DNA of 64,000 nt from a virus (IMGVR_UViG_3300022555_000010:1-64000), one strand, 5' to 3'; shown: positions 32,999 through 50,988, numbered from the stretch's first letter. Program-made: numbers and translations. Notes: generated by a model from the sequence alone, not told the origin.

Positions 32999-33214
32999 AT
33001 GACAATGGAAGCGTATCAGGAACGAGTAATTGAAGAGAAGAACCAGTTGGATGAGAAGATCGGGAAACTGATGGACTTCATCGAGGGTCGGGATTTCTCC
33101 AGGAAAATCACTCTGGCAGAACAGAAGCGTATGCGTCGTCAGGAAATGATCATGGAACTCTATTCCGAAGTCCTGGCAGACCGGATCAAACACTTTACAA
33201 TGATTTCACACTGA
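32999..33214 (+). CDS. crAss001_48-like helical protein
   Basis: YQERVIEEKNQLDEKIGKLMDFI...Q...M..YSEVLADRI. Confidence 0.65.
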   Translation: MTMEAYQERVIEEKNQLDEKIGKLMDFIEGRDFSRKITLAEQKRMRRQEMIMELYSEVLADRIKHFTMISH

Positions 33215-33770
33215 TTTGATAATTCACAAGGCGAAACAATGAGCACACATCCAAGAACTGATGCTATCACTTACGGCTGTTCGTTTTCGCCATGGAATCA
33301 AAAGGTTGTCAATCATGCCAATACTCTCGAAGAAGAATTGGCTGCTATGACTCTTAGGGCAGAGAAGGCGGAGCAGAAGGCTACAGCAGCCAGGAAAGCA
33401 CTTGTGGAAGCCTCTATGGCAATGCCAGGAGATAATATGGAGGAGTTCCTTGACGATGTCCTGACAGGCATTGCTGAAATGGACTCTATACAATAATCCA
33501 TATTAATGATAACCTCTTCTTCCAATTAGTCATTGGGAGAAGGGTATGTCAGACTTTGATAGCACACAAGGATGCGTAACCAACGAAGGTTATGCGATGA
33601 TCATGTTTCTATTGGTCGTGGCATGTTTCGCCGTGCCCATCCTACTTGCCTTGGCAGTTGTCTCTGCCGTTCTCGCATTTTGTTCCATACCCATTTTAAT
33701 GATCATCGTCTCCCTGAGATGGCTAATAACCTGGTGGAAAGGTGAAATAGTCAAATAAGGGGGACTTCCA

Positions 33771-34088
33771 ATGTGTGATATGAGACAGACGGATAAGGAT
33801 GAGTATCGCAGGCTATTGGATGAAATCGGAGAGGATTACTGTAAAGCTGGAACCTATTGTATTTTCAAGGAATTCTTAATCGCTGCACATCCGTCCAGGC
33901 GTCTCCTTGTCCAACTCAAGGCGACCGATAAATTCAAATTTGAGAGAAGTGCCAAAGAAGGTAAGAACATTGGTTGGGAACTGGCGATGAAGCTCTGGGT
34001 ATCTGAGGGACACGCCGAACATTTCGCAGATGCTTATACAGATAAGAAACGATTCAGGGACATATACAGGGAGACAATGAGACAATGA
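33771..34088 (+). CDS. hypothetical protein
   Basis: KFKFERSAKEGKNIGWELA..LW. Confidence 0.6.
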   Translation: MCDMRQTDKDEYRRLLDEIGEDYCKAGTYCIFKEFLIAAHPSRRLLVQLKATDKFKFERSAKEGKNIGWELAMKLWVSEGHAEHFADAYTDKKRFRDIYRETMRQ

Positions 34089-34360
34089 AAACTATACAGA
34101 ATCTTTTAGGAGTCTTGGTTTGTTCTTTATTGATGGGTTGTGCTACGGGCATATCATTTATGATGGAACCTGACGGGGTCTACCCGGCAACAAAGATTGA
34201 TTGTTTATATATCACTGAGGAAGTCCCGGCAGAATGGTCTTATGACAAGAGACTGGTCGCATTGGATTTACCAATTATCATTCTTGACTTCCCCGTCTCA
34301 ATCGTGCTGGATACAGTAATGTTTCCATATGATCTATTTTTCAGAAGGGTAAAGGAATGA
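34085..34360 (+). CDS. YceK/YidQ-like lipoprotein
   Basis: Lipobox LMGC; GVYPAT; LDFPVSIVLDTVMFPYD. Confidence 0.75.
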   Translation: MKTIQNLLGVLVCSLLMGCATGISFMMEPDGVYPATKIDCLYITEEVPAEWSYDKRLVALDLPIIILDFPVSIVLDTVMFPYDLFFRRVKE

Positions 34361-35778
34361 CAAACGCACAACAGGCATTGGCAAAGAAACACGGCTCACC
34401 TCAAGAATTCGAAAGAGCCTGCTTCGCAGCAACCAATTCAGGGACAATAACCCTGGATGAGATGATTGACGGGGTAAACCGTTACAGGGATGAATGGGCC
34501 AAAGCAGGTAAACCAGAAGACTTTATCAAGACAGTCCTTAAACGTGCCGGCTTGGATAAGGAAGAAATAGATGTTGTGATGGCTCTAAGGAATAAGTCTG
34601 GGGATACCCTGGCGACAGCCGCTGACCGGGCAAGAAACTTGATGGATCTCCAGGCAGGATGTGGCTTGTCAGATACGGCTGTGGCGAACACTTATCGAGA
34701 CATCATCGGGAAACTCATAGGCTTCTATTGACAAACAAGCAACGAGGTTTGGTCGCTCAGTTTGGTAAGCCCGAGGAATTCAACAAGGCAATTCAAAAGG
34801 TCGCCAGAAAATCAATGACAATTCGTGATGCCAATCACGCAATACGATCCTATAAGGTGATGTGGAAGAAAGCAGGGGAAAAGGAATGAAGAAATATAGA
34901 GTCATTGAACCTTTATTCGGACCTGTGTGCTCTACTTGCCTGAGAAGAAGGCAATATCTGGCTACCGGCTGGCTCTGGTGGAAGAAAACAGGATGGTACT
35001 GCGATTGTAATTGGCCATTTAAAAAGTCAAAGAAGTCCTGATCCGGCGTATAATGGGGAATGAAGAAGTTCCTGAAATCAATTTTAATGTGGCTATGTAA
35101 GCGGGGAATACATCCCTATTACACCACTCAATATATTGAATGTGGCTGTTTTGCCATTCGATGCCCCGTATGTGGAGAATCCGACTATGACAACCCCAAC
35201 CCTCTCTAAAATTAAAGATCCTAATTCTTGTTCAAACTGTGTGTCTCTGAGATGGGGACCAGAAGAAGGCTGGGATAAATGTGAGAAGCATGGAATTGGT
35301 GTCTATTGGGCGGATAAAGCCAAACAGATCTGTAGTGATCATAAGAGATCCAACTTAAAAGACCCCAGGAACCCAGAACCCGTCATCGAATCATTTGATG
35401 ATTGGTTCAAGTCAACCAAACATTATGGTTGTCCGAGACATAATGATTTCTATGATGTTATGGAACAAGCCTGGAATGCGGCTCTAAAACACGGAGTAAA
35501 GAAATGAATATCACTCAATCAAAACTTAAAGAACTGGAACAAGCAATCCTGAAGGAAATCAATCGAGTCAGATTGGAACTGAGCGATTCTCTTTCCGAAT
35601 CAGATGACTTGGTCTTAGCCCAGGTCATAGACAAAATTTGGCAAAAACAACTCGGTATCATTACATCGAAAGAATAAATTATGGCTATCCCACATTTCAA
35701 ATTACCAGAACATAAACTCTTTCTCTATAGACTTGCTCGACATAAATACGAAGAGATGTGGAATAAGAGGAAGGACAC

Positions 35779-36453
35779 ATGGATAAACTGCAAATGGTCG
35801 ATCTCAATCTCGTTCTGAAGGCGATCGATGAGGAAAAGGAATTCCCCGGTGATATGCCTGACGTTATGAAACAAGCGATGGGCGGGAATACCACATTAAT
35901 CCAGAAAGCCTTGAGGTCTGCTGTATCCCTTACCAAAAGGAGTATCCAGAAGAGGATTGTAACCCAAATCGAGGCGTCATTACCCGGTTGTGGGGGCAAT
36001 TGCACCTGTGATAAGACTCCCAAACCCTTCAAGATTGAACTCTATCAACAGGATTGGACACCAGGGTTCGCTGCCTTCAACGACGATGGCTCCATCCAGG
36101 CAGGGGCTCCCGCTCATATCTCCCTGGATATCGGGGCCTTCATGAGCATCCTGGACACTGAGGAAATCAGTAAACAGGACTTACCTTATGTCATAGCCGA
36201 TTCAATCATGCACGAAATCATTCATGCCTTGGAATCCTGGGCCAGTGTCGAATTCAATGAGGAGAAGGTTGAGGGGCTTTTGGATAAATACCGGGAGAAA
36301 TACCGGAATACCCCACCACCGGTATCAGATGAGGCGATCACAAAAGACTGTTCTTCCTGTAAAAAGAAGTTCACGGGCGGAACAGATAGCTGTGTCCCGG
36401 CACCTGTGGGGATCTCAGGCTTCGAGGCTTGTGATAATTGGGAACAAAAATGA
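35779..36453 (+). CDS. putative zinc metallopeptidase-like protein
   Basis: HEIIH. Confidence 0.5.
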   Translation: MDKLQMVDLNLVLKAIDEEKEFPGDMPDVMKQAMGGNTTLIQKALRSAVSLTKRSIQKRIVTQIEASLPGCGGNCTCDKTPKPFKIELYQQDWTPGFAAFNDDGSIQAGAPAHISLDIGAFMSILDTEEISKQDLPYVIADSIMHEIIHALESWASVEFNEEKVEGLLDKYREKYRNTPPPVSDEAITKDCSSCKKKFTGGTDSCVPAPVGISGFEACDNWEQK

Positions 36454-36923
36454 GGAAGAAAGTGGATTGGACTATTCCAAGGATAAGACCTAATGATTAC
36501 TCATATCTGATTAGATTACGAGACCTCGATGTTTGGAAGAAATGGGCAATAAATATATCCGGATTGGAAAATCTCGAAATCGAGGCCAGAAAGTTTTCAA
36601 AAAAAGATGAAAATACCCATATGTGGGTTCGATGTGGTTCTAAGAAAATCTTTGTTAATGAGAACATCATTGGTAATCAGGCCTTCAGACTTCCAGACTT
36701 AAGGGCCTTCTTATTACATGAGTTGGGACATTTAATAGGTAAAAATCGATTGAATAGCGAATATGTTGCTCATAAATGGGCAATCAAGAAAGCCAAACAA
36801 TTGGGACTATTAATGGAATTGAGGAAATTACAAGTTCTGGCTCTTGGATGGAACGGAGGACCAGATATGGAAATAGAATATCGAGTAGCTGAAAAGAAAT
36901 TGTTGAAACAGGGACTATTATGA
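36450..36923 (+). CDS. putative zinc metallopeptidase-like protein
   Basis: LLHELGH...SEYVAH.WA. Confidence 0.55.
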   Translation: MRKKVDWTIPRIRPNDYSYLIRLRDLDVWKKWAINISGLENLEIEARKFSKKDENTHMWVRCGSKKIFVNENIIGNQAFRLPDLRAFLLHELGHLIGKNRLNSEYVAHKWAIKKAKQLGLLMELRKLQVLALGWNGGPDMEIEYRVAEKKLLKQGLL

Positions 36924-37205
36924 CTTTTTGCACCCATGGTTATAAATGCCCAAAATGCGGATCTTCGGCTATCCAGATGAAAAAAAGAATTGTGGTGCGA
37001 TATCTCTCAAATCTGGACTCGAAACCCTAATTTATCATCACACGTAAATATCACCGTTAAAGTCGGAAAGTCGAAAATCTTTCTGGAAGATACAGATAAT
37101 CTTTATTGCGGGGGATGTGGCTATTTAAGTGAATCAACAGCCTTTAAGTGGAACCCAGGACCCATAGGCTCTATCCCGGTAACAGCAGAAAAAGAGGTAG
37201 CATGA
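36920..37205 (+). pseudogene. array member split by a frameshift in A7 (36980-36986)
   Basis: MTFCTHGYKCPKC joins ELWC...GPIGSIPVTAEKEVA if one A is removed; aligns with the next gene. Confidence 0.7.
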
Positions 37206-37543
37206 GTGCCAGTTACAGTTATCAAGGATGGAAATGCCCCAAATGCGGTAGCGAGAACCTGGGAGTGACTGTCGAATTGGAATGTCGCCTCGAACAAACC
37301 GAATTTACAAATCCTGAAGGTTATGTCGGGAATGATTACCATGTGGAACCCCCATTCTCGGGGAACGGGGGTATGACCAAAACTTCACCAATGTCCTGTC
37401 ATAATTGCGGATATCAGGCCACGGTTGAAGCATTTGAGTGGATTAAAGGCCCAGAAGGATCTATCACGGCAACAGCAGAAGTCGCAATATGTGACGACTT
37501 AACCCCTCAATCAAGTCTTAATGTGTCATATATGACGCATTAA
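37202..37543 (+). CDS. array microprotein
   Basis: CPKC..CHNC..GPEGSITATAE. Confidence 0.8.
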   Translation: MSASYSYQGWKCPKCGSENLGVTVELECRLEQTEFTNPEGYVGNDYHVEPPFSGNGGMTKTSPMSCHNCGYQATVEAFEWIKGPEGSITATAEVAICDDLTPQSSLNVSYMTH

Positions 37544-37562
37544 AGACACCTGTGTCAATTAT

Positions 37563-37757
37563 ATGAGTCATTATCCATTGATCAGATGCCCAAAATGTTT
37601 CAGTCATGAATTGGATTTGAGAGGTGATCCGAAACATAGTAATTATACGGTATACCAATGCCTGAAATGCGGTAATGATGGTTCGAATATCGAATTCTCA
37701 GTTAATAACCCGGAAGGCTGTATCGCAGTAAATCAGGGCGAGGATGTTAAAGAATGA
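37563..37757 (+). CDS. array microprotein
   Basis: NPEGCIAVNQGEDV. Confidence 0.8.
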   Translation: MSHYPLIRCPKCFSHELDLRGDPKHSNYTVYQCLKCGNDGSNIEFSVNNPEGCIAVNQGEDVKE

Positions 37758-37954
37758 AATCCGGGAAACATAGATGCCATAACTGTATGGGAGATGTCTT
37801 CTGGGACGGAACTCGAAGACAGCCTGTTAAATATATCCTCAAATGCGTCAAATGCGGTCAAACAGGCAATTATCTAACCTTCCTTGATAATACCCCAAAA
37901 GGATGTTTCCTGGTCAGAGAGGAACAAGACGAATTATGCCTCACTTTACCTTAA
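37754..37954 (+). CDS. array microprotein
   Basis: TPKGCFLVREEQDE. Confidence 0.8.
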   Translation: MKSGKHRCHNCMGDVFWDGTRRQPVKYILKCVKCGQTGNYLTFLDNTPKGCFLVREEQDELCLTLP

Positions 37955-38136
37955 AATTAAGATGTCCATATTGTCTATTCAGAATCTTCCACCTCGCTAT
38001 CGTCCAGGATGCATTGGAGATCGAGCCGCAATACGAATGCCAGGGATGCGGTTATACAGATATCTCTGAAAATCTCTACGATAATACCCCAAAAGGATGT
38101 ATCGCAGTGACAATGGGGGAGGACGTAAAAGAATGA
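37936..38136 (+). CDS. array microprotein
   Basis: TPKGCIAVTMGEDV. Confidence 0.8.
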   Translation: MPHFTLKLRCPYCLFRIFHLAIVQDALEIEPQYECQGCGYTDISENLYDNTPKGCIAVTMGEDVKE

Positions 38137-38306
38137 ATTACCGATGCCCCAAATGTAATGAAACCGAATTTAAAGAGGCGAATATTATGTCCAACGGGAG
38201 ACGAGTAGTCGAATGCCGTAATTGTGGATTTGAAGATTTCGATTTCTGGATGATTGACCTCATCCCGGAAGGCACTATCCCAGTAAGACAGGAAAGGGAT
38301 ATTTAA
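38133..38306 (+). CDS. array microprotein
   Basis: IPEGTIPVRQERDI. Confidence 0.8.
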   Translation: MNYRCPKCNETEFKEANIMSNGRRVVECRNCGFEDFDFWMIDLIPEGTIPVRQERDI

Positions 38307-38501
38307 ATGGCTCACTTTATCTTAGGCGTCAAATGTCCCAAATGTCTCTCGCATTCTATTCAGGTGTCAGATATCCAATCCTGGGAAAGAGGAAGACTCT
38401 GGGAATGCACAAATTGCCATTATGACGACGTCGAACAAACCTTTATCCAAAATGAACCAAAAGGCTGTATCACCGTAACAGCAGGAAAAGACGTGGAATG
38501 A
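38307..38501 (+). CDS. array microprotein
   Basis: EPKGCITVTAGKDV. Confidence 0.8.
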   Translation: MAHFILGVKCPKCLSHSIQVSDIQSWERGRLWECTNCHYDDVEQTFIQNEPKGCITVTAGKDVE

Positions 38502-38740
38502 CTATCAGTACCGTCAAAATTACACAATTAAATGGAAAGATTAAAATCAGCCAATTAAGATGTCTTTCATGTGGGAACACGGGATTTGATAAAATGATCA
38601 AAAAAGTGCCTATGATTCAATTGTCCACATTGGACGTCCAATTGAAATGTAATCATTGTGGCCAATTAGGGGATATGTGGATCTTCAGGGATAAAACCCC
38701 TCCAGGTACTATCCCGGTCAACAGGGAAAGGGATATATGA
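38498..38740 (+). CDS. array microprotein
   Basis: TPPGTIPVNRERDI. Confidence 0.8.
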   Translation: MTISTVKITQLNGKIKISQLRCLSCGNTGFDKMIKKVPMIQLSTLDVQLKCNHCGQLGDMWIFRDKTPPGTIPVNRERDI

Positions 38741-38928
38741 TCCGAGTCATCAGATGCCCCATTTGTCTGAGCCACCGTCTCTCCCGAGATATCCCATTGA
38801 AATTCATGGATTATAAATCCAGGTGGAAATGTAAGGATTGCAATTATGAGGATACCGATGATAACTTCATCGTGAATTGTGCCCCAGGATGCATTACCGT
38901 ATCAAGAGGCGAGGACGTAATAAAATGA
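38737..38928 (+). CDS. array microprotein
   Basis: APGCITVSRGEDV. Confidence 0.8.
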   Translation: MIRVIRCPICLSHRLSRDIPLKFMDYKSRWKCKDCNYEDTDDNFIVNCAPGCITVSRGEDVIK

Positions 38929-39250
38929 AAAGATTAAAAGAAATCATGGTTGCCTATCTCAAATTAAATTGGTATCTATTAACCCAAGGCATGTGGAAAG
39001 GCGAATGCGGCTATACCGTCCAACACCAAAATAATCACATCGTTAAAATCGCCGCAGTTAAAGGCTCTATCCGCAATTTCACCTTCCAAGTAATGAAAAC
39101 CTTCTATGAGGAACAATAATGAATAAAAGAAATCACTATAACCAGCCGTCCCCTAAAGAATTCATCATCTTTATCATTATCCTCTTCCTCATTGTGAAAT
39201 TGGGCTGCATGGGATTGGATAAATTGTTGTTGAAATAAAAGGAGTCAATT

Positions 39251-39781
39251 ATGAATTGGTTCAAATGCCTGGAGAAGATTAACGACGTCTCAATATCACC
39301 CTTAGATCAGTTTATGGATAATCGAGGCTGGCTCGCAGAAATATATCGGGAAGATACTACCCCAACTTCCCTCCTCCCCAAAATGGCCTATGTCTCAATC
39401 ACTAAGCCAGGAGTCGTCAGAGGCCCTCACCAACATACTCAACAATCAGACTTATTCGCCTTTGTCTATGGAATATGGTGGGTTAAACTCTGGGACGTCC
39501 GACAAGACTCTCCAACCTATAAGACTATCATGAGATTCAAACTCACGATCCCAGCCGTCGTCATCGTACCCCCAGGCGTCGTCCACGCTTACGGTAACGC
39601 CCATTACAAAAAGAATGGCATCGTCTTCAACCTCCCGAACCAACTCTTCAAAGGCCAAGGCAAGAAAAACCCGGTAGACGAAATCAGACACGAAGAGAAT
39701 CCAGCCTTCAATACAGACGATATCTCAAACCAACATTGGATCTCCCAATTCTGGGCTCTACAAACCTATATCCAATCATAA
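39251..39781 (+). CDS. dTDP-4-dehydrorhamnose 3,5-epimerase-like cupin (RmlC-like)
   Basis: DNRGWLAEIYR, PGVVRGPHQH..Q.D, WDVRQDSPTY, VPPGVVHAY. Confidence 0.85.
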   Translation: MNWFKCLEKINDVSISPLDQFMDNRGWLAEIYREDTTPTSLLPKMAYVSITKPGVVRGPHQHTQQSDLFAFVYGIWWVKLWDVRQDSPTYKTIMRFKLTIPAVVIVPPGVVHAYGNAHYKKNGIVFNLPNQLFKGQGKKNPVDEIRHEENPAFNTDDISNQHWISQFWALQTYIQS

Positions 39782-40016
39782 ACAGCACACCCGTGTAATA
39801 CCTCTTTTCTTCCCCCTACATATAATACTAAAGAAATTTCTGCACTTTCCCCACCCGTGTAATATCGAGGAATAGCCATATTTTCCAGAAGGTAGGGAAA
39901 GAGGTGGAAATGGGTTGAGCAGTATAGGGACATACATGCACGATAACATAGATACTGTTACATAGACATATAGAGAGTTATATACAGGGATAGACATATG
40001 ACTGCTTACCAGGTAA

Positions 40017-40124
40017 CAAGATGAAAATGATATGAAACCAAGATGAAAATGATATGAAACCAAGATGAAAATGATAGCAACCAAGATGAAAATAATATGA
40101 AACCAAGATGAAAATGATAGCAAC
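40017..40124 (+). repeat. five tandem 21-22 bp iteron-like repeats CAAGATGAAAATrATA(TGA/GC)AAC
   Basis: Units start at 40017, 40039, 40061, 40082 and 40104. Confidence 0.9.
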
Positions 40125-40230
40125 CCGACAGAGAATTTTCCCATTCCTCTCCACAGAATTTTCACTCCAATTCTTGTTACGGGACAGAAACACTTCCAAC
40201 AGTTCCATATGGTCGGCGATGTAGGGGCCT

Positions 40231-40303
40231 TGAAATAGGACAGCTATGAAAATAACGGAAGGCAAGTGCCTTGTGGGGGCCTGTTCTATGAGCCAGGATT
40301 TTT
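40231..40303 (+). repeat. bipartite repeat, copy 1: TGAAATAGGACAGCTATG-N39-ATGAGCCAGGATTTTT
   Basis: Same boxes and spacing at 48479-48551. Confidence 0.85.
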
Positions 40304-40337
40304 TGAAAATTCGATTTTGCGATTTTGGGGTAAAAGG

Positions 40338-40552
40338 ATGAATAATGACATGGCGTTAATGATCTCATTGCAATTTTGTGATGGGTGTCGCAAAAAGGTG
40401 GATATAAGGGTGGGGTTATCAGCAGACAGATGGGGGAGGAAGTGGAATATCTGTCCGAGATGTGGTGGGACAGGGCATATTGGGAAAATGATTGGGTATC
40501 TGGGGTAGAGGGGTGCATATTTGTGGCTGATGAAATAAATGTGAGGAATTAA
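40338..40552 (+). pseudogene. array member with an apparent 1-nt deletion near 40467-40469
   Basis: CPRCGG continues in the -1 frame as DRAYWENDWVSGVEGCIFVADE. Confidence 0.65.
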
Positions 40553-40941
40553 TGGGGAGTGGGTTTCAATTCAGCAAAGTGGTGACGACGGCGGAATTAT
40601 ATTGTGCCAAGTGTCGGGAAGTGGTGGACATACGGGTGGACATATCGAAGGATCGGTGTGTGGAGTGGACAGAGTGTCCGAGATGTCATGGGAATTCGAC
40701 GACCTGGAAGAATTCGAATAAGCCTGGGGACACGGTTGGGAGTATTTATGTGGTAGACGAGGAGAATTACCATCAGGATTATCAGAGGATGGCACCACAA
40801 TTTCGGGGGAATCGTGTGGGAGGATCTTGTAGGGAGTGTGGGAACTGCGATAAATGTACGGTACATTCGACAGATGGGTGGGCAAGTTGTTGGTGGCCGA
40901 AGGGAAGTATTATTGTGATGGAGGAGCGTGAGGAGGGATAA
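40552..40941 (+). CDS. array protein, two fused units
   Basis: TVGSIYVVDEE and CWWPKGSIIVMEERE. Confidence 0.8.
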   Translation: MGSGFQFSKVVTTAELYCAKCREVVDIRVDISKDRCVEWTECPRCHGNSTTWKNSNKPGDTVGSIYVVDEENYHQDYQRMAPQFRGNRVGGSCRECGNCDKCTVHSTDGWASCWWPKGSIIVMEEREEG

Positions 40942-40944
40942 AAG

Positions 40945-41121
40945 ATGGTAGAATTCAAACCATGTAGGACTTGTGGGTATCGGCCATATGACAATTACAA
41001 GTTATCGGATGATGGGTGTAACCGGGAATTTATTACAAAGGGAGGGAAAGACTGTTGGGTTCCGGAAGGGAGCATTGGGATTTCGGATGAGCAGCCAGTA
41101 ATTGAGACAATTGGGGTATAA
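40945..41121 (+). CDS. array microprotein (not in track)
   Basis: MVEFKPCRTC...CWVPEGSIGISDEQPVIETIGV. Confidence 0.8.
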   Translation: MVEFKPCRTCGYRPYDNYKLSDDGCNREFITKGGKDCWVPEGSIGISDEQPVIETIGV

Positions 41122-41127
41122 TGGGGG

Positions 41128-41337
41128 ATGGACGATGAGATTAAATATTTCAAATTATGGTGTTATGACTGTAAGAGGTGGGCAGACATACGGATGTCAG
41201 TAGATTTGGAGGGGAAGGAATTAGCAGGGGTGACGAGCTGTTCGATATGTAAAGGGAAGGATACGAGATGGCTCTTTAGTTTTACGGGGGCGTCCAAGGA
41301 GGGGTGCATATTTGTGACGGGGAGTCGGGATGAGTAA
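41128..41337 (+). CDS. array microprotein
   Basis: KEGCIFVTGSRDE. Confidence 0.8.
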   Translation: MDDEIKYFKLWCYDCKRWADIRMSVDLEGKELAGVTSCSICKGKDTRWLFSFTGASKEGCIFVTGSRDE

Positions 41338-41537
41338 TAATGAATTAAAGAGATGTGGGACGTGTGAAGCGTATAAGGATTGGAATCGTGAAGGGGGATT
41401 TGGAGGAGCAGGGATGAAGAGGTGTTCCTTGCATTTAAGAGCGTTGGGGGGGGATATCTGAAGAATGTAGGCGGACGAGGATACATTGGCACCCGGTAGG
41501 GACGGTAAGGGTTGAGGGAGAGCGGGATGAGTTTTAA
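41330..41537 (+). pseudogene. array member frameshifted in G8 (41446-41453)
   Basis: G7 would restore ...HWHPVGTVRVEGERDEF. Confidence 0.7.
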
Positions 41538-41711
41538 ATTGGATGAATTAAAGAGGTGCGGGACTTGTGGGAGTTATCGTGGGGGATCACGTCAGAGAAT
41601 CAGTGTCAGAGGGGATTGATGGGGTTGGGGGTTTGTATGAATGATGGGAAGGGGAGGATTTATTGGCATCCGGTGGGAATGATAAGGGTGGAGGAAGAAA
41701 GGGATGAGTAA
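41527..41711 (+). pseudogene. array member frameshifted in G5 (41581-41585)
   Basis: G6 would restore ...YWHPVGMIRVEEERDE. Confidence 0.7.
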
Positions 41712-41943
41712 GGGCTTGGAGGGATGTAAGGCCTGTGAGACTTGTGGGGATTATTTGGAATGGGAGACGATATTGGTTGCAAGGAAATGGATCTGTACCA
41801 GTGGAATAATTTTTACGGGAGTGTGTATTCAGGATGGCAGGATTTATTGGCATCCGGTGGGGACGATAAGAGTTATGGGGGAGCAAGATGACATTTCAAA
41901 AGATGAGAACGATGGCATTAATTCAGAGGAGTGCCGGGGGTAA
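41704..41943 (+). CDS. array microprotein
   Basis: YWHPVGTIRVMGEQD. Confidence 0.8.
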   Translation: MSKGLEGCKACETCGDYLEWETILVARKWICTSGIIFTGVCIQDGRIYWHPVGTIRVMGEQDDISKDENDGINSEECRG

Positions 41944-42094
41944 GGTTCCGCCGATAGAGGGGGGAGGGTGTCAGGAGTGTCAGGTTTTTTATGATGGGTG
42001 TAACAGTCTTCAGAGTCGGGAGGAGATATTGACTTGTTTTGTAGCATTGGGGTGTATCAAGGTTATTAGAGAGCAGGATGCAGAGTCAGTTTAA
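41888..42094 (+). CDS. array microprotein
   Basis: CFVALGCIKVIREQD. Confidence 0.75.
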   Translation: MTFQKMRTMALIQRSAGGKVPPIEGGGCQECQVFYDGCNSLQSREEILTCFVALGCIKVIREQDAESV

Positions 42095-42251
42095 AGGGTG
42101 TTTCAATTGTGGTCAGAATATCTACGTTCCAAGTGCGATTGTTGGAGTATATTGTAATGATTGTATAGTGGAGGCTGGTAAGGTTCGGATGGAATTATCG
42201 AAATGGTATCCGAAGGGGGCGATACCGGTTCAGGGGGAGCGTGATGAGTAA
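42078..42251 (+). CDS. array microprotein (not in track)
   Basis: WYPKGAIPVQGERDE. Confidence 0.8.
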   Translation: MQSQFKGCFNCGQNIYVPSAIVGVYCNDCIVEAGKVRMELSKWYPKGAIPVQGERDE

Positions 42252-42396
42252 TATTGAATCATGTCGTGGTTGTCAGAGGAGGCAAGGGAGTTGTAATTGG
42301 TTAAGGGAGTCAATGGGAGATAAGTGGATGAGTAATCTTGATCAATGTTGGCATCCGATAGGGACGATATTAGTGATATGGGAGCAGGATGAATAA
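42244..42396 (+). CDS. array microprotein (not in track, 50 aa)
   Basis: CWHPIGTILVIWEQDE. Confidence 0.8.
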   Translation: MSNIESCRGCQRRQGSCNWLRESMGDKWMSNLDQCWHPIGTILVIWEQDE

Positions 42397-42556
42397 TAAG
42401 TGGGAAGGGTGTTCAGAATGTTGTCGAGGGAAGACGGGGTCTGGGTACGGGTATTGTGCCTGGATAAGGGAAGATTTAGGGTGTAGGGATTTAGATGTTC
42501 GGTTGTGTTGGCATCCGGTTGGGACGATTTTAGTGGTTAAGGAACGGGATGAGTGA
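42389..42556 (+). CDS. array microprotein (not in track)
   Basis: CWHPVGTILVVKERDE. Confidence 0.8.
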   Translation: MNNKWEGCSECCRGKTGSGYGYCAWIREDLGCRDLDVRLCWHPVGTILVVKERDE

Positions 42557-42743
42557 ATTCAAGTCATGCACGAAATGTGGTGGAAGGCCATATATTGATT
42601 TCAAGTTATCGATAGGGGATTGTCCTCGGAGGTATTGGATAGATCAGAGGAGGACGTTTAGTGGGGTAGACTGTTGGTATCCGGAGGGGAGTATACCGGC
42701 AGATGATGAGATGCCGGTGATACCGGTAATAGGTGAAGAATGA
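42549..42743 (+). CDS. array microprotein
   Basis: CWYPEGSIPADDEMPVIPVIGEE. Confidence 0.8.
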   Translation: MSEFKSCTKCGGRPYIDFKLSIGDCPRRYWIDQRRTFSGVDCWYPEGSIPADDEMPVIPVIGEE

Positions 42744-42934
42744 AGAATAAACTGGATGAGCGTGTAATCAAGATATTGGGATGTCGGGAATGCGGGAATG
42801 GGGATAGATGTAAGATGGTGGATAGGTGTGTGAGTCGTGCTAATCGGATAGATGAGGAACGGGAGGATGGTCAAGTGGGAGGGTATTGGTATCCTGTTGG
42901 GACGATCCGGGTCGTGGGTGAGAAGAATGGGTGA
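42740..42934 (+). CDS. array microprotein
   Basis: YWYPVGTIRVVGEKN. Confidence 0.8.
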   Translation: MKNKLDERVIKILGCRECGNGDRCKMVDRCVSRANRIDEEREDGQVGGYWYPVGTIRVVGEKNG

Positions 42935-43118
42935 ATTTAATTCATGCTTTACGTGTGAATTTTTACCGTTTGATGGATTTTCATTAGCGTTGCAGGAATG
43001 TCCACATCGGGAATGGGCATTGGTAGCGAACACTCAATTATTTGATTGTTGGGGTCCCAGGGGTTGTATACAGGTGGCAGGCGAGAGGTCTATGATTCCG
43101 GTAATAGGTGAGGAATGA
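42927..43118 (+). CDS. array microprotein
   Basis: CWGPRGCIQVAGERSMIPVIGEE. Confidence 0.8.
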   Translation: MGEFNSCFTCEFLPFDGFSLALQECPHREWALVANTQLFDCWGPRGCIQVAGERSMIPVIGEE

Positions 43119-43336
43119 AGAATGAGGCGTCAGAAGATTTGAAAGCCTTTGTGTTAATGAATCGGTTACAGGAGAAGAGGATGGCATTATGGGCAAGGGG
43201 GAAGGTAGAGGGAGGGGCATGTTCCGCGTGTAATGGGTGTTTTGGATGTAGGGCGTTATTTGGGACCTGGAATAAATGTTGGACACCTATTGGGGCGATC
43301 GGGATTCGAGAGGAGGTGGATGATGGTTCACTGTGA
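43115..43336 (+). CDS. array microprotein
   Basis: CWTPIGAIGIREEVD. Confidence 0.8.
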   Translation: MKNEASEDLKAFVLMNRLQEKRMALWARGKVEGGACSACNGCFGCRALFGTWNKCWTPIGAIGIREEVDDGSL

Positions 43337-43526
43337 AGATTGTGGATTGATGAGGAAGAAGTTCAACAATTGGAATTCGGATGGACCCACGTGTAAGGCG
43401 TTTCGGAAAGCAATGGGGATAGAGAGAGACTTTCGGGTGTCATGGTTGAAGTTTCTGGAACGATGTTGGCATCCTGTGGGGAGTATACCGGTGATCAAGG
43501 AACGAGATGAACAAGATGGAGCCTGA
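43320..43526 (+). CDS. array microprotein
   Basis: CWHPVGSIPVIKERDE. Confidence 0.8.
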   Translation: MMVHCEDCGLMRKKFNNWNSDGPTCKAFRKAMGIERDFRVSWLKFLERCWHPVGSIPVIKERDEQDGA

Positions 43527-43698
43527 CTGTCAGGAATGTGAAATATTGAGGGCTAGGAGTTCAAGAGGGAATCAATGTTCTGAATTTCGGGCGGCGGTTG
43601 GTATGAGGACAGATGTTTTGTATGGGAGTTTGAGTAAGTGTTTTCATCCGGTGGGGACGATACTTGTGGTAGAGGAGTTTGATGAAAAGGGTCATTAA
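43507..43698 (+). CDS. array microprotein
   Basis: CFHPVGTILVVEEFDE. Confidence 0.8.
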   Translation: MNKMEPDCQECEILRARSSRGNQCSEFRAAVGMRTDVLYGSLSKCFHPVGTILVVEEFDEKGH

Positions 43699-43885
43699 TT
43701 GGATTTGGTTATGGTGTACGACTCCGAGGTGGGACAGGGATGATGCGTCTATTTCGATGCAATTGAAGGGATGTAAGGGATGTGGGAGATACAATAAGAA
43801 GTGGGACTGCAAGTTATTGATGACCTATGAGGTCTGTTTTCATATGCCTGGGACGATTAGGGTAATAAGGGAGCAAGATGAGTAA
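43682..43885 (+). CDS. array microprotein
   Basis: CFHMPGTIRVIREQDE. Confidence 0.8.
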   Translation: MKRVINWIWLWCTTPRWDRDDASISMQLKGCKGCGRYNKKWDCKLLMTYEVCFHMPGTIRVIREQDE

Positions 43886-44156
43886 GGATTGTTTAGATTG
43901 TGGGAACAGTCGGTTAGATGTTTATGGACGGAGTATTCCGGTTATACACCACATATGTTTAAAGTGTCGTGGAGACAGGTTTGATCCAAAGCCGATGGTA
44001 TCGCAATGGTATCCGAGGGGGTTGATTCGGGTAGAGGATGAGTTTGAGATAGGGCCGGCGGAGTATGTGGGGCAGATGCCGATACGGGAGGAAGTCACGG
44101 TAATACCCAGGGGATGTATTGGGGTAATCAGGGAGATGGCCGAAAGTGGAGCGTGA
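43878..44156 (+). CDS. array protein with two tags
   Basis: WYPRGLIRVEDE and IPRGCIGVIRE. Confidence 0.8.
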   Translation: MSKDCLDCGNSRLDVYGRSIPVIHHICLKCRGDRFDPKPMVSQWYPRGLIRVEDEFEIGPAEYVGQMPIREEVTVIPRGCIGVIREMAESGA

Positions 44157-44475
44157 TCACAAGATTATCTGTAATGAGTGTGGGAAGATATATTACCCGG
44201 AGTCATTTGATGAGATTGATTCCCGGACGAGGTGTGTTTGTCGTGGTTCATTTTATGGGATAGCTGATTTTAGAGGATTAGATGTTTGGGGGATGTTGGG
44301 GGAGTTCAGGATTTTTGAGGGCAAGGAGATAAAAGTTGAGGCGATATTGGTAGACACGAAGACATTGGGGACGATGAACATAAAGAAGGAAGAAAGTGAT
44401 AATGGGTTATTTTGGAATAAGAGGCTGATTTTGGAAGGGTGTATTAATGCGTGGAAGGAAAGGGATGAGAAATGA
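44146..44475 (+). CDS. array protein
   Basis: LEGCINAWKERDE. Confidence 0.75.
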   Translation: MERDHKIICNECGKIYYPESFDEIDSRTRCVCRGSFYGIADFRGLDVWGMLGEFRIFEGKEIKVEAILVDTKTLGTMNIKKEESDNGLFWNKRLILEGCINAWKERDEK

Positions 44476-44612
44476 TAGGGGAACATGAAGCGGGAAAGGG
44501 GTCAGCGAGTCGGGTAAAGGACTTGAAGAAATACGGGGAAGGGTATTCCGGTATACAATGGAACAGCAAGAAGCCGGCGAAGGTAAAGCCGGCTAAGAAG
44601 ATCAAGAGATGA
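44472..44612 (+). CDS. 46-aa basic untagged peptide inside the array
   Basis: MIGEHEAGKGSASRVKDLKKYGEGYSGIQW...; ATGA overlaps at both ends. Confidence 0.6.
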   Translation: MIGEHEAGKGSASRVKDLKKYGEGYSGIQWNSKKPAKVKPAKKIKR

Positions 44613-44809
44613 ACATTCGGTCAATGAACGAGATTGGGGATGGTCCTGGGTGTCGGGAAGACTGTAATGTGGCAATGAATGGGTGTGCCATGTTTCGACC
44701 GAAGATGGATGTTTGGATAGTCGTGGACAAACCCGGAGCCACACATTGTTATCATCCCCGTGGCAGTATTTTAGTGGTTAAGGAGTTAGATGAGTTGGAG
44801 TTGCAATAA
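44609..44809 (+). CDS. array microprotein
   Basis: CYHPRGSILVVKELDE. Confidence 0.8.
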   Translation: MNIRSMNEIGDGPGCREDCNVAMNGCAMFRPKMDVWIVVDKPGATHCYHPRGSILVVKELDELELQ

Positions 44810-44975
44810 TTGTGGAGGACGATGGGAGGGGAAGGGTTGCACTTTAGACCAACTGTTATATTGGGAGATTCAGGATCAGAAGAGACAAAATTGGGATCAG
44901 GTATGGAAGAATGAGGAGGTGTGTTATTGGCCTCCTGGGACTATTTTGGTGATTAATGAAGAAGACGAATTGTGA
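44790..44975 (+). CDS. array microprotein
   Basis: CYWPPGTILVINEEDE. Confidence 0.8.
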   Translation: MSWSCNNCGGRWEGKGCTLDQLLYWEIQDQKRQNWDQVWKNEEVCYWPPGTILVINEEDEL

Positions 44976-45156
44976 AGATTGTGCCGGAGGGAATAGTAAA
45001 TTCAAGGGGTGTCAGGCGGATCTTTTAGAACTCATTGTGGATGCGGATATGCTTCAGAGTATGTTATCAGGGGATGGGACGGCATTATGTTGGCATCCGA
45101 AGGGATGTATTCTGGTGATTAAGGAGCAAGATGAAGAGGGACTGTGCGGATTGTGA
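44956..45156 (+). CDS. array microprotein
   Basis: CWHPKGCILVIKEQDE. Confidence 0.8.
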   Translation: MKKTNCEDCAGGNSKFKGCQADLLELIVDADMLQSMLSGDGTALCWHPKGCILVIKEQDEEGLCGL

Positions 45157-45313
45157 AGTCTTAAGGCGATACGAGAATCCTGGATATCATTGTGAAAATT
45201 TCAGGAAAGCGGTAGGGATAGAGGTTGATGGCAGATTACGAGATAAGCCATTGACCTCTTATTGTTTTCATCCTTACAGGACTATTTTAGTGGTCGGAGA
45301 ACGAGATGAGTAA
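45131..45313 (+). CDS. array microprotein
   Basis: CFHPYRTILVVGERDE. Confidence 0.8.
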   Translation: MKRDCADCEVLRRYENPGYHCENFRKAVGIEVDGRLRDKPLTSYCFHPYRTILVVGERDE

Positions 45314-45482
45314 TCCTTGTTTAGACTGCAATATACCTCTTCTTACAAGTTGCTGGGAATTTCGATTAGCTCTGGGGATCAGTTCTGTAGATCTTCCCCA
45401 TGACCAGGCATTAAATTCTCGTTGTTATCATCCCGTGGGAAGCATAAAAGTAGAAGGAGAGCGTGATGAGACAAGAGATTAA
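45306..45482 (+). CDS. array microprotein (not in track)
   Basis: CYHPVGSIKVEGERDE. Confidence 0.8.
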   Translation: MSNPCLDCNIPLLTSCWEFRLALGISSVDLPHDQALNSRCYHPVGSIKVEGERDETRD

Positions 45483-45783
45483 AGAGGACCGGTGGAAGGG
45501 GATCGGTCACATCCGACAGATTTCAAAAGAGGTTCTTACTGAGACAGAGTATTCGAATGCGTCTGTAAGGTCTGGGGAGTGTCCCTGGAGATTTGAGAGG
45601 AACAATAGGTGGCCGTATCGGTTAGGGATATGTCAGAAGAGTGCTGGGAAGAATGGGACAATGATCTGTATGCATTTCCGGGGTATAATAAAGAAGAAGG
45701 AAGAATATGTTCGGTGTTCGTATTGGATGAGGCCAAAGGGGACGATTAAAGTGGTACTGGAGAAGGATGAAGCGGAAGGATAA
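45466..45783 (+). CDS. array protein (long type)
   Basis: MRPKGTIKVVLEKDE; paralog of 45948. Confidence 0.8.
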   Translation: MRQEIKEDRWKGIGHIRQISKEVLTETEYSNASVRSGECPWRFERNNRWPYRLGICQKSAGKNGTMICMHFRGIIKKKEEYVRCSYWMRPKGTIKVVLEKDEAEG

Positions 45784-45970
45784 AAATAAGAACAAGGCTC
45801 CGGGGTGTTTGGGGTGTCATGTGGTATCAGCATCAGATGATTGTTTTGGGTTCAGGTGTCGGATGAATGTCTGGTATCAACCAGATAAAGCTGGTCGGCA
45901 AAAGTGTTATCATCCTTCTGGGACAATTTTAGCGATATCGGAGCAGGATGAACATATTGCAGAACATTGA
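45767..45970 (+). CDS. array microprotein
   Basis: CYHPSGTILAISEQDE. Confidence 0.8.
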   Translation: MKRKDKNKNKAPGCLGCHVVSASDDCFGFRCRMNVWYQPDKAGRQKCYHPSGTILAISEQDEHIAEH

Positions 45971-46292
45971 GACTGATGATTTCTCGAAGGGAGTGAGGCA
46001 CATACGGGAGTCTTCGAATTGGGGGCAATATCAGGTGTCGGCTGAAGTATTTCCGGATGATTGTCCGAAGAGGTTGGAATATAAGGAGAGTGATCTTGAT
46101 ATGGGGGCAGGGGAATTTATGATAGGAATCTGTAAGGCACATTATCCTTCATCGACAGGGGGGAATACTCATACGTGTAAGCATTATGTTGGGAAGATTC
46201 ACAAGGGGAATGTGGATTACATAAGGTGTTCTTGTTTATTTCATCCTGTTGGGGCGATCAAGGCAATTCAGGAAAGAGAGTCTGATGAGTGA
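45948..46292 (+). CDS. array protein (long type)
   Basis: FHPVGAIKAIQERE. Confidence 0.8.
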   Translation: MNILQNIETDDFSKGVRHIRESSNWGQYQVSAEVFPDDCPKRLEYKESDLDMGAGEFMIGICKAHYPSSTGGNTHTCKHYVGKIHKGNVDYIRCSCLFHPVGAIKAIQERESDE

Positions 46293-46477
46293 ACAAAGAT
46301 TGTGAGGAGTGTGGAGGAAACAGGTGGATTGAGAAGACTCCTGCTGGTAATTTTATACGGGATCATCGGGTGTGTGACTGGGTTTGGAAGAATCATATGC
46401 GAATGACGGATGACGCGTGTTGGCATCCAAAGGGGAGTTTGATCGTTGTAAGTGAAAGAGCCGAGGACAAATTGTAG
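46289..46477 (+). CDS. array microprotein
   Basis: CWHPKGSLIVVSERAE. Confidence 0.8.
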   Translation: MNKDCEECGGNRWIEKTPAGNFIRDHRVCDWVWKNHMRMTDDACWHPKGSLIVVSERAEDKL

Positions 46478-46652
46478 AGGGTGTGATGTTCAAAATTCGG
46501 TGTTTGATGGCCGAAAGAACTTATTAAAGACCTGTATCAATTTCAGGGATCGGATGGGTTGTTCGAGGCATATGGGAGTGAATTGGATGGATGACTGCTG
46601 GCATCCGATAGGGACTGTTTTAGTAGCCGAGGAACAAGATGAATACCTGTGA
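46452..46652 (+). CDS. array microprotein
   Basis: CWHPIGTVLVAEEQDE. Confidence 0.8.
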   Translation: MKEPRTNCRGCDVQNSVFDGRKNLLKTCINFRDRMGCSRHMGVNWMDDCWHPIGTVLVAEEQDEYL

Positions 46653-46821
46653 GGATTGCAACATTCGGAATTGGGCAAATGAGAGTCATCTGGACTTATT
46701 CAAGTCCTGTAATTATTTCAGGAATTTGATGGAGTGTGATAGGCATACGGGGTTGAATTGGTTGGATGATTGTTGGCATCCGATTGGGACGATTTTAGTG
46801 ACCAGGGAGAAAGATGAGTAG
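46639..46821 (+). CDS. array microprotein
   Basis: CWHPIGTILVTREKDE. Confidence 0.8.
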   Translation: MNTCEDCNIRNWANESHLDLFKSCNYFRNLMECDRHTGLNWLDDCWHPIGTILVTREKDE

Positions 46822-46990
46822 AATACTGTTGTGTCCAAATTGTCAGGTGTTTCAGAATGGGTCTGGGATTCTTTGTAATGAATTCATCACATTGATGAAT
46901 GTAAGTTTATTACCTGAGACTCGGGAATGGCAAGGCAAGTGTTTTCATCCGATAGGAACGATTTTAGTGATATGGGAACAAGATGAGTGA
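46814..46990 (+). CDS. array microprotein (not in track)
   Basis: CFHPIGTILVIWEQDE. Confidence 0.8.
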   Translation: MSRILLCPNCQVFQNGSGILCNEFITLMNVSLLPETREWQGKCFHPIGTILVIWEQDE

Positions 46991-47192
46991 TCAAGACATT
47001 AGTTGTTCAGAGTGTGAGATCTTCATATCGAAGAAGAAGTATAAGAGCAATGGGATTTCACGGTGTGTTGACTTCAGGTGGAAGATGGAGATCTTTGATG
47101 AAAGAGAAGGGCTGTCATTTCAAGATTATTCGATGAGGTGTTTTCATTTGCCTGGGACGATTTTGGTATCAGGAGAGCAAGATGAAGTGTGA
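46983..47192 (+). CDS. array microprotein
   Basis: CFHLPGTILVSGEQDE. Confidence 0.8.
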   Translation: MSDQDISCSECEIFISKKKYKSNGISRCVDFRWKMEIFDEREGLSFQDYSMRCFHLPGTILVSGEQDEV

Positions 47193-47370
47193 AGACTGCA
47201 ATCTGACTCACTGGGGAATATTCAAGATGAGAGGGGAGAAGTGTTTTTATTTTAAGGAGAAGATGGGACTTAACTGGTTCGTGTTACCGGAGAAGTCGTG
47301 GACAGAGCATGACTTACCGTGTTGGCATTCACCTGGGACGATATTGATCGTGGAGGAGAAAGATGAGTGA
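47182..47370 (+). CDS. array microprotein
   Basis: CWHSPGTILIVEEKDE. Confidence 0.8.
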   Translation: MKCEDCNLTHWGIFKMRGEKCFYFKEKMGLNWFVLPEKSWTEHDLPCWHSPGTILIVEEKDE

Positions 47371-50940: not shown

Positions 50941-50988
50941 ATGATCTCTTATGATACACAGTATATGATCTCTTATGATACACAGTAT
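50941..50988 (+). repeat. perfect 24-bp tandem duplication at a gene start
   Basis: ATGATCTCTTATGATACACAGTAT x2 (MISYDTQY x2). Confidence 0.9.

Follow-up and report, generated by a model that had tools for sequence, protein, structure and literature searches.

A position-dependent reversal of strand bias around a repeat-bearing junction in a large freshwater phage

Bidirectional replication origins are marked by a switch from C-rich to G-rich sequence, and in the GC-skew 'chirochores' of Lobry and Grigoriev the polarity extends over the whole replichore. The strand-displacement gradients of vertebrate mitochondria span the whole genome. T5- and SPO1-type phages have left ends that carry a terminal repeat full of small early genes. 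The origins of phage T4 consist of a promoter and an unwinding element, with one leading strand made first, from an R-loop (Kreuzer and Brister 2010, PMC3016281), and early T4 forks often stall or fail to finish (PMC3016281). In the available excerpts of a survey of huge phages, uniform skew with co-oriented genes is read as unidirectional replication in ~30% of them (Al-Shayeb et al. 2020, PMC7162821), and skew 'patterns of unknown significance' are mentioned in those of a second study (Borges et al. 2021, bioRxiv 10.1101/2021.08.26.457843).

We have analyzed a 151,773-bp contig (152 kb), part of the genome of a large freshwater phage; the window is the stretch of 64,000 nucleotides at its start. 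The + strand is G-rich across the contig, with an overall GC skew of +0.27. In sliding windows the skew is +0.2 to +0.35 at 1-33 kb and about +0.1 at 33.2-38.8 kb. It is lowest at 39,400-39,799 (-0.270), rises to between +0.51 and +0.65 at 40.2-42 kb, and reaches about +0.33 by 52 kb. The local reversal that the initial annotation placed at the repeat locus is therefore real, passing from -0.27 to +0.65 within ~2 kb, and its base counts for 39,361-39,420 (23 C, 9 G) and 41,581-41,640 (27 G, 5 C) are exact on recount. Measured with 2-kb arms, the skew steps up by +0.63 at 40.3 kb, which over all positions of the 151,773-bp contig corresponds to z = 7.8 and is three times any other step; the largest unrelated one is 0.18-0.21. 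The most negative 1-kb window of the contig (39-40 kb) and the most positive (41-42 kb) are about 1 kb apart. A skew minimum had been expected near 39.9 kb, and over the contig the cumulative minimum lies at 39.86-40.21 kb: the raw curve has a local minimum at 39,856, dipping by only ~90 G-minus-C units where the contig-wide rise is ~18,800, and the detrended curve has its whole-contig minimum at 40,210. Non-coding DNA changes composition at 39,856-39,870. Outside the flip the skew is uniformly positive and the genes co-oriented over ~171 kb, comprising the contig and two 10-kb extensions that both keep positive skew; within this part of the genome there is no second skew switch.

The site is not a chimeric join, because seven independent assemblies bridge it. 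These contigs come from at least three projects, and have 100% identity outside the iteron count and one 1-base gap; one population contig has four iteron copies. Only k-mer contigs break at the site, inside the 22-bp repeats. The ratio of depth right to left is 1.4, 1.1, 1.05 and 1.18 in four runs, values that are low-depth, per-contig averages confounded by a co-occurring strain. In one run the depth is ~1.4x over 39.1-49.4 kb, with a step that starts at 39.12 kb and not at the junction. Contig break points fall at this step, which would be expected were the segment shared by a second strain.

The locus resembles a bidirectional origin in its leading-strand polarity, its visibility at synonymous sites and the cumulative-skew minimum at the site. 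Yet the reversed polarity extends for only ~0.5-8 kb and not over a whole replichore, and its amplitude is extreme (about -0.8 to +0.8 at four-fold sites) on a uniformly positive skew. A classical bidirectional origin with two replichores is rejected: from 33.2 kb leftwards the skew is again positive, at the genome average, for at least 43 kb. The monotone cumulative skew and co-oriented genes of the 152-kb contig, with its positive 10-kb extensions, are like the pattern read as unidirectional in huge phages, but the published curves are for whole genomes (PMC7162821; Borges et al. 2021, bioRxiv 10.1101/2021.08.26.457843). The available excerpts of PMC7162821 and bioRxiv 10.1101/2021.08.26.457843 contain no mention of a short-range antisymmetric spike at the reset point. 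The features of the locus are as follows.

33,239-39,781, + strand: left zone, + strand genes with reversed synonymous G/C bias
36,990-38,928, + strand: nine left-hand members of the tag family (small zinc-ribbon, motif P-x-G-[TSC]-I-x-V), with C- or A-ending codons
39,251-39,781, + strand: RmlC-like cupin gene (PF00908, E = 7.9e-13), the last before the junction
39,782-40,265, no strand: gene-free junction, with homologous architecture in related phages and the composition switch at ~39,856-39,870
39,788-39,864, + strand: pair of 13-bp direct repeats CACCCGTGTAATA, at 39,788 and 39,852, closing the C-rich side
39,870-40,010, + strand: G/purine-rich block, common to the related phages L049, L009 and L135, then ATAGGGACATA / ATAGACATAT motifs
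40,014-40,125, + strand: five tandem 21-22-bp iterons, unit CAAGATGAAAATGATATGAAAC, core RTGAAAA, a motif found nowhere else in the contig
40,129-40,163, + strand: CAGAGAATTTTC-like repeat pair, 23 bp apart, in a short C-rich patch
40,231-40,303, + strand: cassette copy 1, Box A (TGAAATAGGACAGCTATG), 39 nt, Box B (ATGAGCCAGGATTTTT), where G-richness starts
40,266-48,486, + strand: right zone, first block of ~40 overlapping small tag-family genes, four-fold skew plateau of about +0.8
48,479-48,551, + strand: cassette copy 2, containing a perfect TATAAT; no third copy exists in 152 kb
48,550-58,000, + strand: second small-gene block, four-fold skew of about +0.46, mildly above the genome average

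The left zone begins sharply at a gene boundary (33,214/33,239). From 33.2 to 38.3 kb its four-fold GC skew stays at about -0.2 to -0.3, and over 38.3-39.8 kb it deepens to between -0.5 and -1.0; 19 of its 20 genes have a negative value, against 13 of 235 elsewhere (Mann-Whitney p = 5e-13). The four-fold sites of the cupin gene have 37 C and 5 G (skew -0.76). In the right zone the four-fold sites of the + strand have G 0.45-0.57 and C 0.055-0.084, and the median skew at 40.27-48.49 kb is +0.78 against +0.35 (p = 3.5e-12). The non-template strand downstream of the junction is G-rich, as an R-loop origin calls for, with a skew of +0.5 to +0.65 for 8 kb and 5.5% C at four-fold sites. The right plateau is flat, and starts and ends exactly at the two promoter-like cassette copies; at the second the skew falls to +0.3 to +0.6. 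This cassette-bounded plateau resembles a transcription unit and not a decay with distance, which counts against reading the junction as an origin. A exceeds T on either side of the junction. On the right T drops together with C, so the composition is not explained by simple cytosine deamination of an exposed + strand.

The bias is not a consequence of the coding strand. A codon-model gene call gives 283 + genes and three - ORFs, all three within the C-rich zone and one of them within the Pfam-confirmed cupin gene. In public gene calls for independent contigs every gene is + except for one 129-aa - ORF over the iterons that is absent from relatives, in agreement with the initial annotation that the genes lie on one strand. 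That the same tag uses C-ending codons on the left and G-ending ones on the right is also borne out. The flip persists at four-fold synonymous sites and at the conserved residues of the tag, where Gly is GGC 4, GGA 4, GGT 1 and GGG 0 on the left and GGG 29, GGA 11, GGC 1 and GGT 1 on the right. Ile is ATC in 7/8 cases on the left and 5/36 on the right, pooled four-fold G:C is 7:10 against 97:10 (Fisher p = 1.2e-5), and Ser is TCT on the left and AGT or AGC on the right. The tag genes of the two sides are diverged paralogs. Second-position skew is +0.38 in the right zone and ~0.03 elsewhere. G-runs are no commoner than the composition predicts. A preference for C-ending codons is also seen in probable structural genes at 141.5-143.0 kb (skew -0.22 and -0.25).

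Related phages have the same flip, and in five lineages the reversed bias adjoins the junction whatever the genes. Cupin orthologs that abut the junction in four lineages have skews of -0.76, -0.58/-0.56, -0.80 and -0.59. In L009 the cupin is 4.9 kb from the junction and has a skew of +0.66, while the two unrelated genes that abut the junction there have -0.71 and -0.65. The four-fold sites, the tag codons and this flip of an ortholog all show that the bias acts at the nucleic-acid level and follows position, whatever the coding strand or the gene. The left bias fades with distance in three lineages, spanning 6.6 kb in the window and ~7.6 kb in L134; for L135 the span is 4 kb or more. The group rearranges: L009 has the cupin elsewhere, L008 carries an HNH insertion, and L008 and L134 are a strain pair differing mainly by a replaced segment.

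The architecture of the junction is conserved as well. The CACCCGTGTAATA pair occurs once in 152 kb, and a C-rich...TGTAAT pair resembling it occupies the corresponding position in all relatives. The iterons are helically phased, with 5 x 22 bp in the window, 3 x 21-22 bp in L049 and 2.7 x 11 bp in L008; the window thus has five phased, site-unique copies, where an iteron-type origin calls for at least three direct repeats of 17-22 bp. A+T is 66-70% over 39,951-40,150, which is the iteron array itself, compared with a contig value of 54%, and A far exceeds T there. A GAGAA(A)TTT motif is conserved in L049 and L008/L134, and Box A and/or Box B are also found in L049, L134 and L009. The related junctions have strong -10 elements pointing rightward. 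Scanning with the sigma-70 consensus gave only a weak match for cassette copy 1, at 40,317-40,346, and no leftward promoter. There is no conserved - strand gene in the junction among the relatives. No initiator, polymerase or primase gene was found near the junction or in the whole 152 kb, the neighbors being cupin and zinc-ribbon tag proteins with no match to a Rep, O or primase family, and no DnaA-box cluster is present, with no TTATCCACA match (up to 1 mismatch) between 39,322 and 46,210. These absences count against an origin.

In having 3-5 phased direct repeats of ~22 (or 11) bp within A+T-rich DNA, unique within the contig (a part of the genome), the junction is like the iteron origins of lambda and of plasmids P1, F, RK2 and pSC101. 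Unlike these, it has no cognate initiator gene beside the iterons and no DnaA boxes, and the iteron sequence varies among relatives outside the RTGAAAA core. It shares with T4 oriF and oriG, and with ColE1 and mitochondrial origins, a G-rich non-template strand downstream, and like them it would combine a promoter region with an easily unwound A+T-rich element. However, T4 origins have no iteron array, and no R-loop, MotA-type promoter or T4-like replication genes are apparent in the present phage. We know of no comparable skew flip for T4. Vertebrate mitochondria have a similar four-fold amplitude and a bias that changes with distance from the origin, and the presumed exposed strand on the left is, as there, G+T-rich and very C-poor; but here the gradient covers a few kilobases each side, and T is not enriched on the right.

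Since related phages share the flip, it likely marks the start of DNA copying and of early gene reading. We tentatively favor a junction that combines a fixed replication origin with an early-promoter region, firing both ways for ~7-8 kb on a one-directional background. The segment at 39.78-40.27 kb would be the start of the infection program, an iteron-bearing origin combined with the promoter region that serves the first early operon, and the G/C flip would be the accumulated mutational footprint of a process running outwards in both directions. On each side the strand running 5' to 3' away from the junction would be treated differently from its partner. At four-fold sites this strand reaches near-equal extremes (G 0.565 and C 0.055 for the + strand on the right, G 0.51 and C 0.065 for the - strand at 38.9-39.8 kb). 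This sign and symmetry are those of leading-strand polarity at an origin. We infer that replication is the process involved and that it starts at the junction in both directions. The rightward fork, co-directional with transcription, would copy the bulk of the genome and generate the uniform positive skew. A leftward fork or displacement loop would run head-on into transcription and usually die within ~1-8 kb, leaving a reversed bias that fades with distance; the T4 origins and their often incomplete early forks offer a precedent (PMC3016281). On the right, the first operon would be transcribed heavily and early on the single infecting genome, adding bias as far as the next cassette, and R-loops on the very G-rich non-template strand may contribute. 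The initial annotation had proposed an origin or joined genome ends; the C-to-G sign, the skew minimum and the conserved phased iterons uphold the first in part, while the two-replichore form of origin is not supported and joined ends are improbable.

Divergent early transcription might account for the flip if the junction were just a two-way early promoter region and no origin. A rightward early operon at 40.27-48.49 kb would be read intensely from the single infecting genome, and so would a leftward, non-coding transcript antisense to the last genes, each exposing its non-template strand and making the transcript-matching strand G-rich on its side. We consider this doubtful, while noting that the right plateau is bounded exactly by promoter-like cassettes, the second with its perfect TATAAT, that related junctions have the strong rightward -10 elements, and that the left fading could reflect gradual antisense termination; transcription per molecule would also probably be highest on a lone infecting genome. 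Beletskii and Grigoriev reportedly described, for T7, that phage strand bias often follows transcription, which counts for this explanation, and in T7-type phages the bias tracks transcription and not an internal origin, which counts against ours. But the required leftward promoter was not found in the sigma-70 scan, the junction lacks a conserved - strand gene, five lineages would all have to have kept a 1-8-kb antisense RNA across real + genes, and the phased iterons are left without explanation. Joined physical ends are improbable. Here the junction would be the left end of linear packaged DNA and the right zone an early-gene block that enters first or is terminally repeated, as in T5 or SPO1; the repeats would be packaging or cutting signals, and the bias would come from strand displacement starting at the ends. 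Phages with terminal repeats usually have at the left end a large repeat-bearing gap and many small early genes, which favors this idea, and our phage likewise has a repeat-bearing gap followed by a ~8-kb block of small early genes, bracketed by the 72-bp cassette as a direct repeat 8,248 bp apart and with the ~1.4x depth of one run. Unlike T5 and SPO1 ends, however, the site is crossed by all seven independent contigs, and contig depths show no consistent two-fold step: the ratio is only 1.05-1.2 in three other runs, and the step of the remaining run begins at the 39.12-kb break points. Moreover, were the ends resected 5' to 3' or left with 3' tails, the strands exposed would be the other ones and the sign would be reversed. 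The observed sign is compatible only with protein-primed end replication, which is not known for phages of this size. Joined ends thus gain no positive support.

Selection in place of mutation, with blocks tuned by time of expression to different codon or tRNA pools, or kept free of mRNA structure by being poor in C on the right and in G on the left, seems to us decidedly improbable. RNA pairing would be lowered by depletion of either G or C, A exceeds T on both sides, and the probable structural genes at 141.5-143.0 kb share the C-ending preference; yet the same cupin gene flips sign with position, unrelated genes in L009 turn negative when they abut the junction, amino-acid usage shifts too (in second-position skew and Ser codons), the non-coding DNA at 39,856-39,870 also switches, and G-runs do not exceed the frequency predicted by composition. 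A mosaic history, in which the left zone is a recently imported module retaining donor composition, is very improbable indeed. The sharp onset at 33,214/33,239 and the rearrangements within the group would suit it, but all five lineages are reversed beside the junction whatever the genes, the tag genes to its left and right are diverged paralogs, and a possible donor with general negative skew is absent among the sampled phages of the group.

The junction, read as an origin with an early-promoter region, lies within a zone of ~15 kb that exactly contains a hypervariable family of some 50-65 small tag proteins. It is conceivable, though unlikely, that this zone is a built-in strand-asymmetric mutagenic zone, in which kilobase-long single-stranded intermediates (displacement loops or R-loops) at the start site would give a mitochondria-like bias on both sides. 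If so, the start of replication or transcription would double as a generator of diversity for early, presumably anti-host, proteins.

The 151,773-bp contig whose first 64 kb form the window comes from freshwater and lake metagenomes, and carries genes of a large phage encoding the large terminase, portal, collagen-like tail fibres, NAD-dependent ligase, helicase, RtcB and CCA-adding enzyme. It contains 44,512 G compared with 25,679 C, an overall skew of +0.27. Practically all its genes lie on the + strand; a codon-model gene call gave 283 + genes and three − ORFs, which are artefacts of the skew zone. A 'unidirectional' skew pattern has been described in ∼30% of huge phages (PMC7162821), and the contig background agrees with it. 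The contig is only a fragment; five independent contigs agree with it through base 151,764 and then run on into other genes, and a separate contig reaches 9.7 kb past base 1, the left and right extensions having no mutual overlap. Those at the right end exist in two alternative versions, which indicates co-occurring strains. This may be a jumbo phage, or else the 342-kb record on which identical proteins from the contig stretch are present may be a concatemer. The left part of the window has accessory genes for an RtcB RNA ligase (1107–2522), a NUMOD3 homing-endonuclease-like product (2585–3250) and a protein whose C-terminus resembles a serpin (7026–8186). A tRNA search of the window found none, and megablast of 36–44 kb against phage records gave no match. 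Judged by its terminase, the closest phage in the databases is LR745208 (485 kb; 30% identity), which was rejected as compositionally unrelated, having 55% G+C and a weak mixed skew.

The initial annotation had described a reversal of GC skew near 39.9 kb. This is confirmed, and its hand counts were exact on recounting. In sliding windows the skew is +0.2 to +0.35 over 1–33 kb, drops to about +0.1 beyond 33.2 kb, bottoms out at −0.27 at 39.4–39.8 kb, and is then +0.5 to +0.65 from 40.2 kb. The step of +0.63 (z = 7.8) is three times any other in the contig. The extreme 1-kb windows of the contig flank it ∼1 kb apart, with the most negative at 39–40 kb and the most positive at 41–42 kb. As expected from the annotation, cumulative skew has a minimum here; it is local in the raw curve (39,856) and contig-wide in the detrended curve (40,210). 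Non-coding DNA changes its bias at 39,856–39,870. A chimeric assembly join at 39.9 kb is excluded, as the junction is spanned at 100% identity by seven contigs, which come from ENA and JGI assemblies made on different samples. These population contigs are identical to the window except for a missing iteron and a 1-base gap, each in a single contig. K-mer contigs end within the iterons, since this repeat exceeds the word size. In one sequencing run (X1) the contig depth was ∼12–13 over 39,121–49,449 and 8–9 outside (∼1.4-fold), which was not repeated in three other runs, and the k-mer contigs of X1 break at both borders of this stretch. The depth is most simply explained by a second strain sharing 39.1–49.4 kb. 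A Nextera adapter is fused to an X1 contig end at 49,203. A search for RNA runs containing the phage found none.

The reversal falls in a gene-free junction (39,782–40,265), which has the following elements in order from left to right.

Pair of 13-bp direct repeats
Composition switch point
G/purine block with ATAGGGACATA-type motifs
40,014–40,125: five iterons of 21–22 bp, core RTGAAAA, in a stretch of 66–70% A+T
GAGAATTTT pair
40,231–40,303: cassette of Box A (TGAAATAGGACAGCTATG), 39 nt and Box B (ATGAGCCAGGATTTTT)

Within the 152 kb the iterons and the 13-bp repeat pair are confined to the junction, and the cassette has just two copies, of which that at 48,479–48,551 holds a perfect TATAAT. 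Iteron number is polymorphic in the population, with four copies in one assembly and five in the window. Each iteron unit can be read as a mini-ORF (ATG AAA ATG ATA TGA), and resembles the RBS/start junction between the genes for small zinc-ribbon proteins that lie on both sides of the junction and share the motif P-x-G-[TSC]-I-x-V (the tag). Box B in the window opens with an ATG from which short frames (MSQDF...) run in both cassette copies, at 40,288–40,341 and 48,536–48,568. The ATG is missing from Box B in the related phage locus L049, and it is therefore probably the DNA or RNA that is conserved. A 129-aa − ORF overlies the iterons and has no counterpart in the relatives. No DnaA boxes and no Rfam family were found at the junction, and its DNA fold is not unusual (z = +0.97).

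Homologous motifs are present in the same order in loci of related phages, namely L049, L008/L134, L009 and the end of L135. This order was established by manual comparison and regular expressions; a MAFFT alignment of four junctions was too gappy. There are three iterons of 21–22 bp in L049 and 2.7 copies at 11 bp in L008/L134, and Box A is also found in L134. L008 and L134 are two strains of one related phage (94–99.8% identical), the only diverged strain pair; their main difference is a segment, 1 kb to the left of the junction, that has been replaced. In L008 an inserted gene for a 716-aa HNH/HTH endonuclease separates the junction from the first early gene, and L134 lacks it (L008:2479–4629 compared with L134:18512–19011). 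Pattern scans of viral contigs gave no hit to either the iterons or the cassette. Searches of IMG/VR and JGI with the cupin gene that ends the left zone led nearly always to unrelated phages or bacteria, whose skew is weak, and only L049/L050 among the hits belong to the group. The candidate relative P0130/L133 was rejected as an unrelated mixed-strand element.

At four-fold sites the genes of the contig have a baseline skew of about +0.35. In the left zone (33,239–39,781) the skew is negative in 19 of 20 genes compared with 13 of 235 elsewhere (p = 5e-13), and in the right zone (40,266–48,486) its median is +0.78 (p = 3.5e-12). The left bias weakens with distance from the junction (−0.78, −0.32 and −0.22) and ends abruptly at the boundary between genes at 33,214/33,239, where the skew jumps back to +0.35; in the relatives it fades gradually over ∼7.6 kb (L134) or at least 4 kb (L135). 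The right zone is a flat plateau near +0.8 bounded by the two cassette copies. The strand running 5′ to 3′ away from the junction has a near-identical four-fold composition on both sides, with G = 0.51–0.57 and C ∼0.06. On both sides A is more frequent than T, and the right side shows no rise in T. G-tracts show no excess over the expectation from composition, and neither the border at 33.2 kb nor that at 48.5 kb has inverted repeats or special features except the cassette. The only other short run of negative-skew genes in the contig comprises two adjoining genes at 141,452–142,987, with four-fold skews of −0.22 and −0.25, beside a collagen-like gene. These are probably highly expressed structural genes favoring C-ending codons.

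The bias was said in the initial annotation to arise independently of the coding strand, and this proved correct; the C-rich genes are truly on the + strand. The last gene of the left zone encodes an RmlC-like cupin on the + strand (PF00908, E = 7.9e-13), and those upstream of it carry zinc-ribbon and tag motifs. The claim of the initial annotation of a change in codon use also holds, since synonymous choice at conserved tag residues flips between 9 left and 42 right genes. For tag Gly the left genes use GGC or GGA and the right genes GGG, Ile is ATC in 7/8 left and 5/36 right cases, and the pooled four-fold G:C ratio is 7:10 on the left compared with 97:10 on the right (p = 1.2e-5). Where the cupin gene abuts the junction its four-fold skew is −0.76 (window), −0.58 and −0.56 (L008 and L134), −0.80 (L049) and −0.59 (L135). 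In L009, where it lies 4.9 kb from the junction, its skew is +0.66, and two unrelated genes that abut that junction have −0.71 and −0.65. One gene with opposite synonymous bias according to distance is a natural experiment separating positional pressure from codon selection. Amino acid usage also shifts: the right zone has a second-position skew of +0.38, and tag Ser changes from TCT in the left genes to AGT or AGC in the right genes. The data show that the bias is caused neither by coding strand, nor by protein composition, nor by gene identity. The evidence from four-fold sites, tag codons, orthologs, amino acids and non-coding DNA therefore indicates a position-dependent pressure acting on the nucleic acid. 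Gene calling was affected in the left zone, where the codon model and one public call skipped 37.7–39.25 kb or took − ORFs that sit inside real + strand genes, because models trained on composition favor the wrong strand there. Annotation pipelines are likely to miss genes in this zone.

It is textbook knowledge that skew flips at origins. Of the bidirectional origin proposed in the initial annotation, the C-to-G sign switch and the local minimum stand, but a genome-scale form is ruled out, as polarity is reversed for no more than 6.6 kb and the skew is ordinary 43 kb further left. A local feature that is antisymmetric in G and C, positional, conserved and centered on unique repeats calls for a two-way process from the junction. 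The best fit, which we favor tentatively, is a fixed origin coupled to an early promoter region, with a short-lived leftward fork. The rightward fork would travel with transcription and continue, while a leftward fork or displacement loop would meet transcription head-on and end after a few kb. The right plateau would be an added effect of early transcription across the first operon, perhaps involving R-loops. Phage T4 provides a precedent, as its origins combine a promoter with an unwinding element, initiation is at first one-sided, and early forks often stop short of completion (PMC3016281).

The main rival is divergent early transcription without an origin. The bounding of the plateau by cassettes fits this, but no leftward promoter or gene was found and the iterons are present, and we consider it unlikely. 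Joined genome ends, the other proposal of the initial annotation, are quite improbable; they are without positive evidence, and end resection predicts a skew of the opposite sign. The ortholog and paralog tests contradict selection on codons or mRNA as the source of the bias, leaving it a slight probability, and equally contradict a foreign module, which we regard as the least probable of these explanations.

Strand bias is routinely used to call origins in uncultivated phage genomes, on the usual assumption of a genome-wide V or a monotone 'unidirectional' line. The flip described here is a third pattern, being antisymmetric, very strong and confined to a short range on a one-directional background. 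It is shared by a family of freshwater phages and is tied to a repeat architecture that is likewise conserved. A short-range flip of such amplitude, with this background and co-oriented genes, is not described in the parts of the literature covered by our search. Either reading, origin or transcription, gives a precise place and strand for testing. If the junction is an origin, it would point to a mode of initiation with one short-lived fork; if the effect is purely transcriptional, early transcription of a single infecting genome can strongly shape phage DNA.
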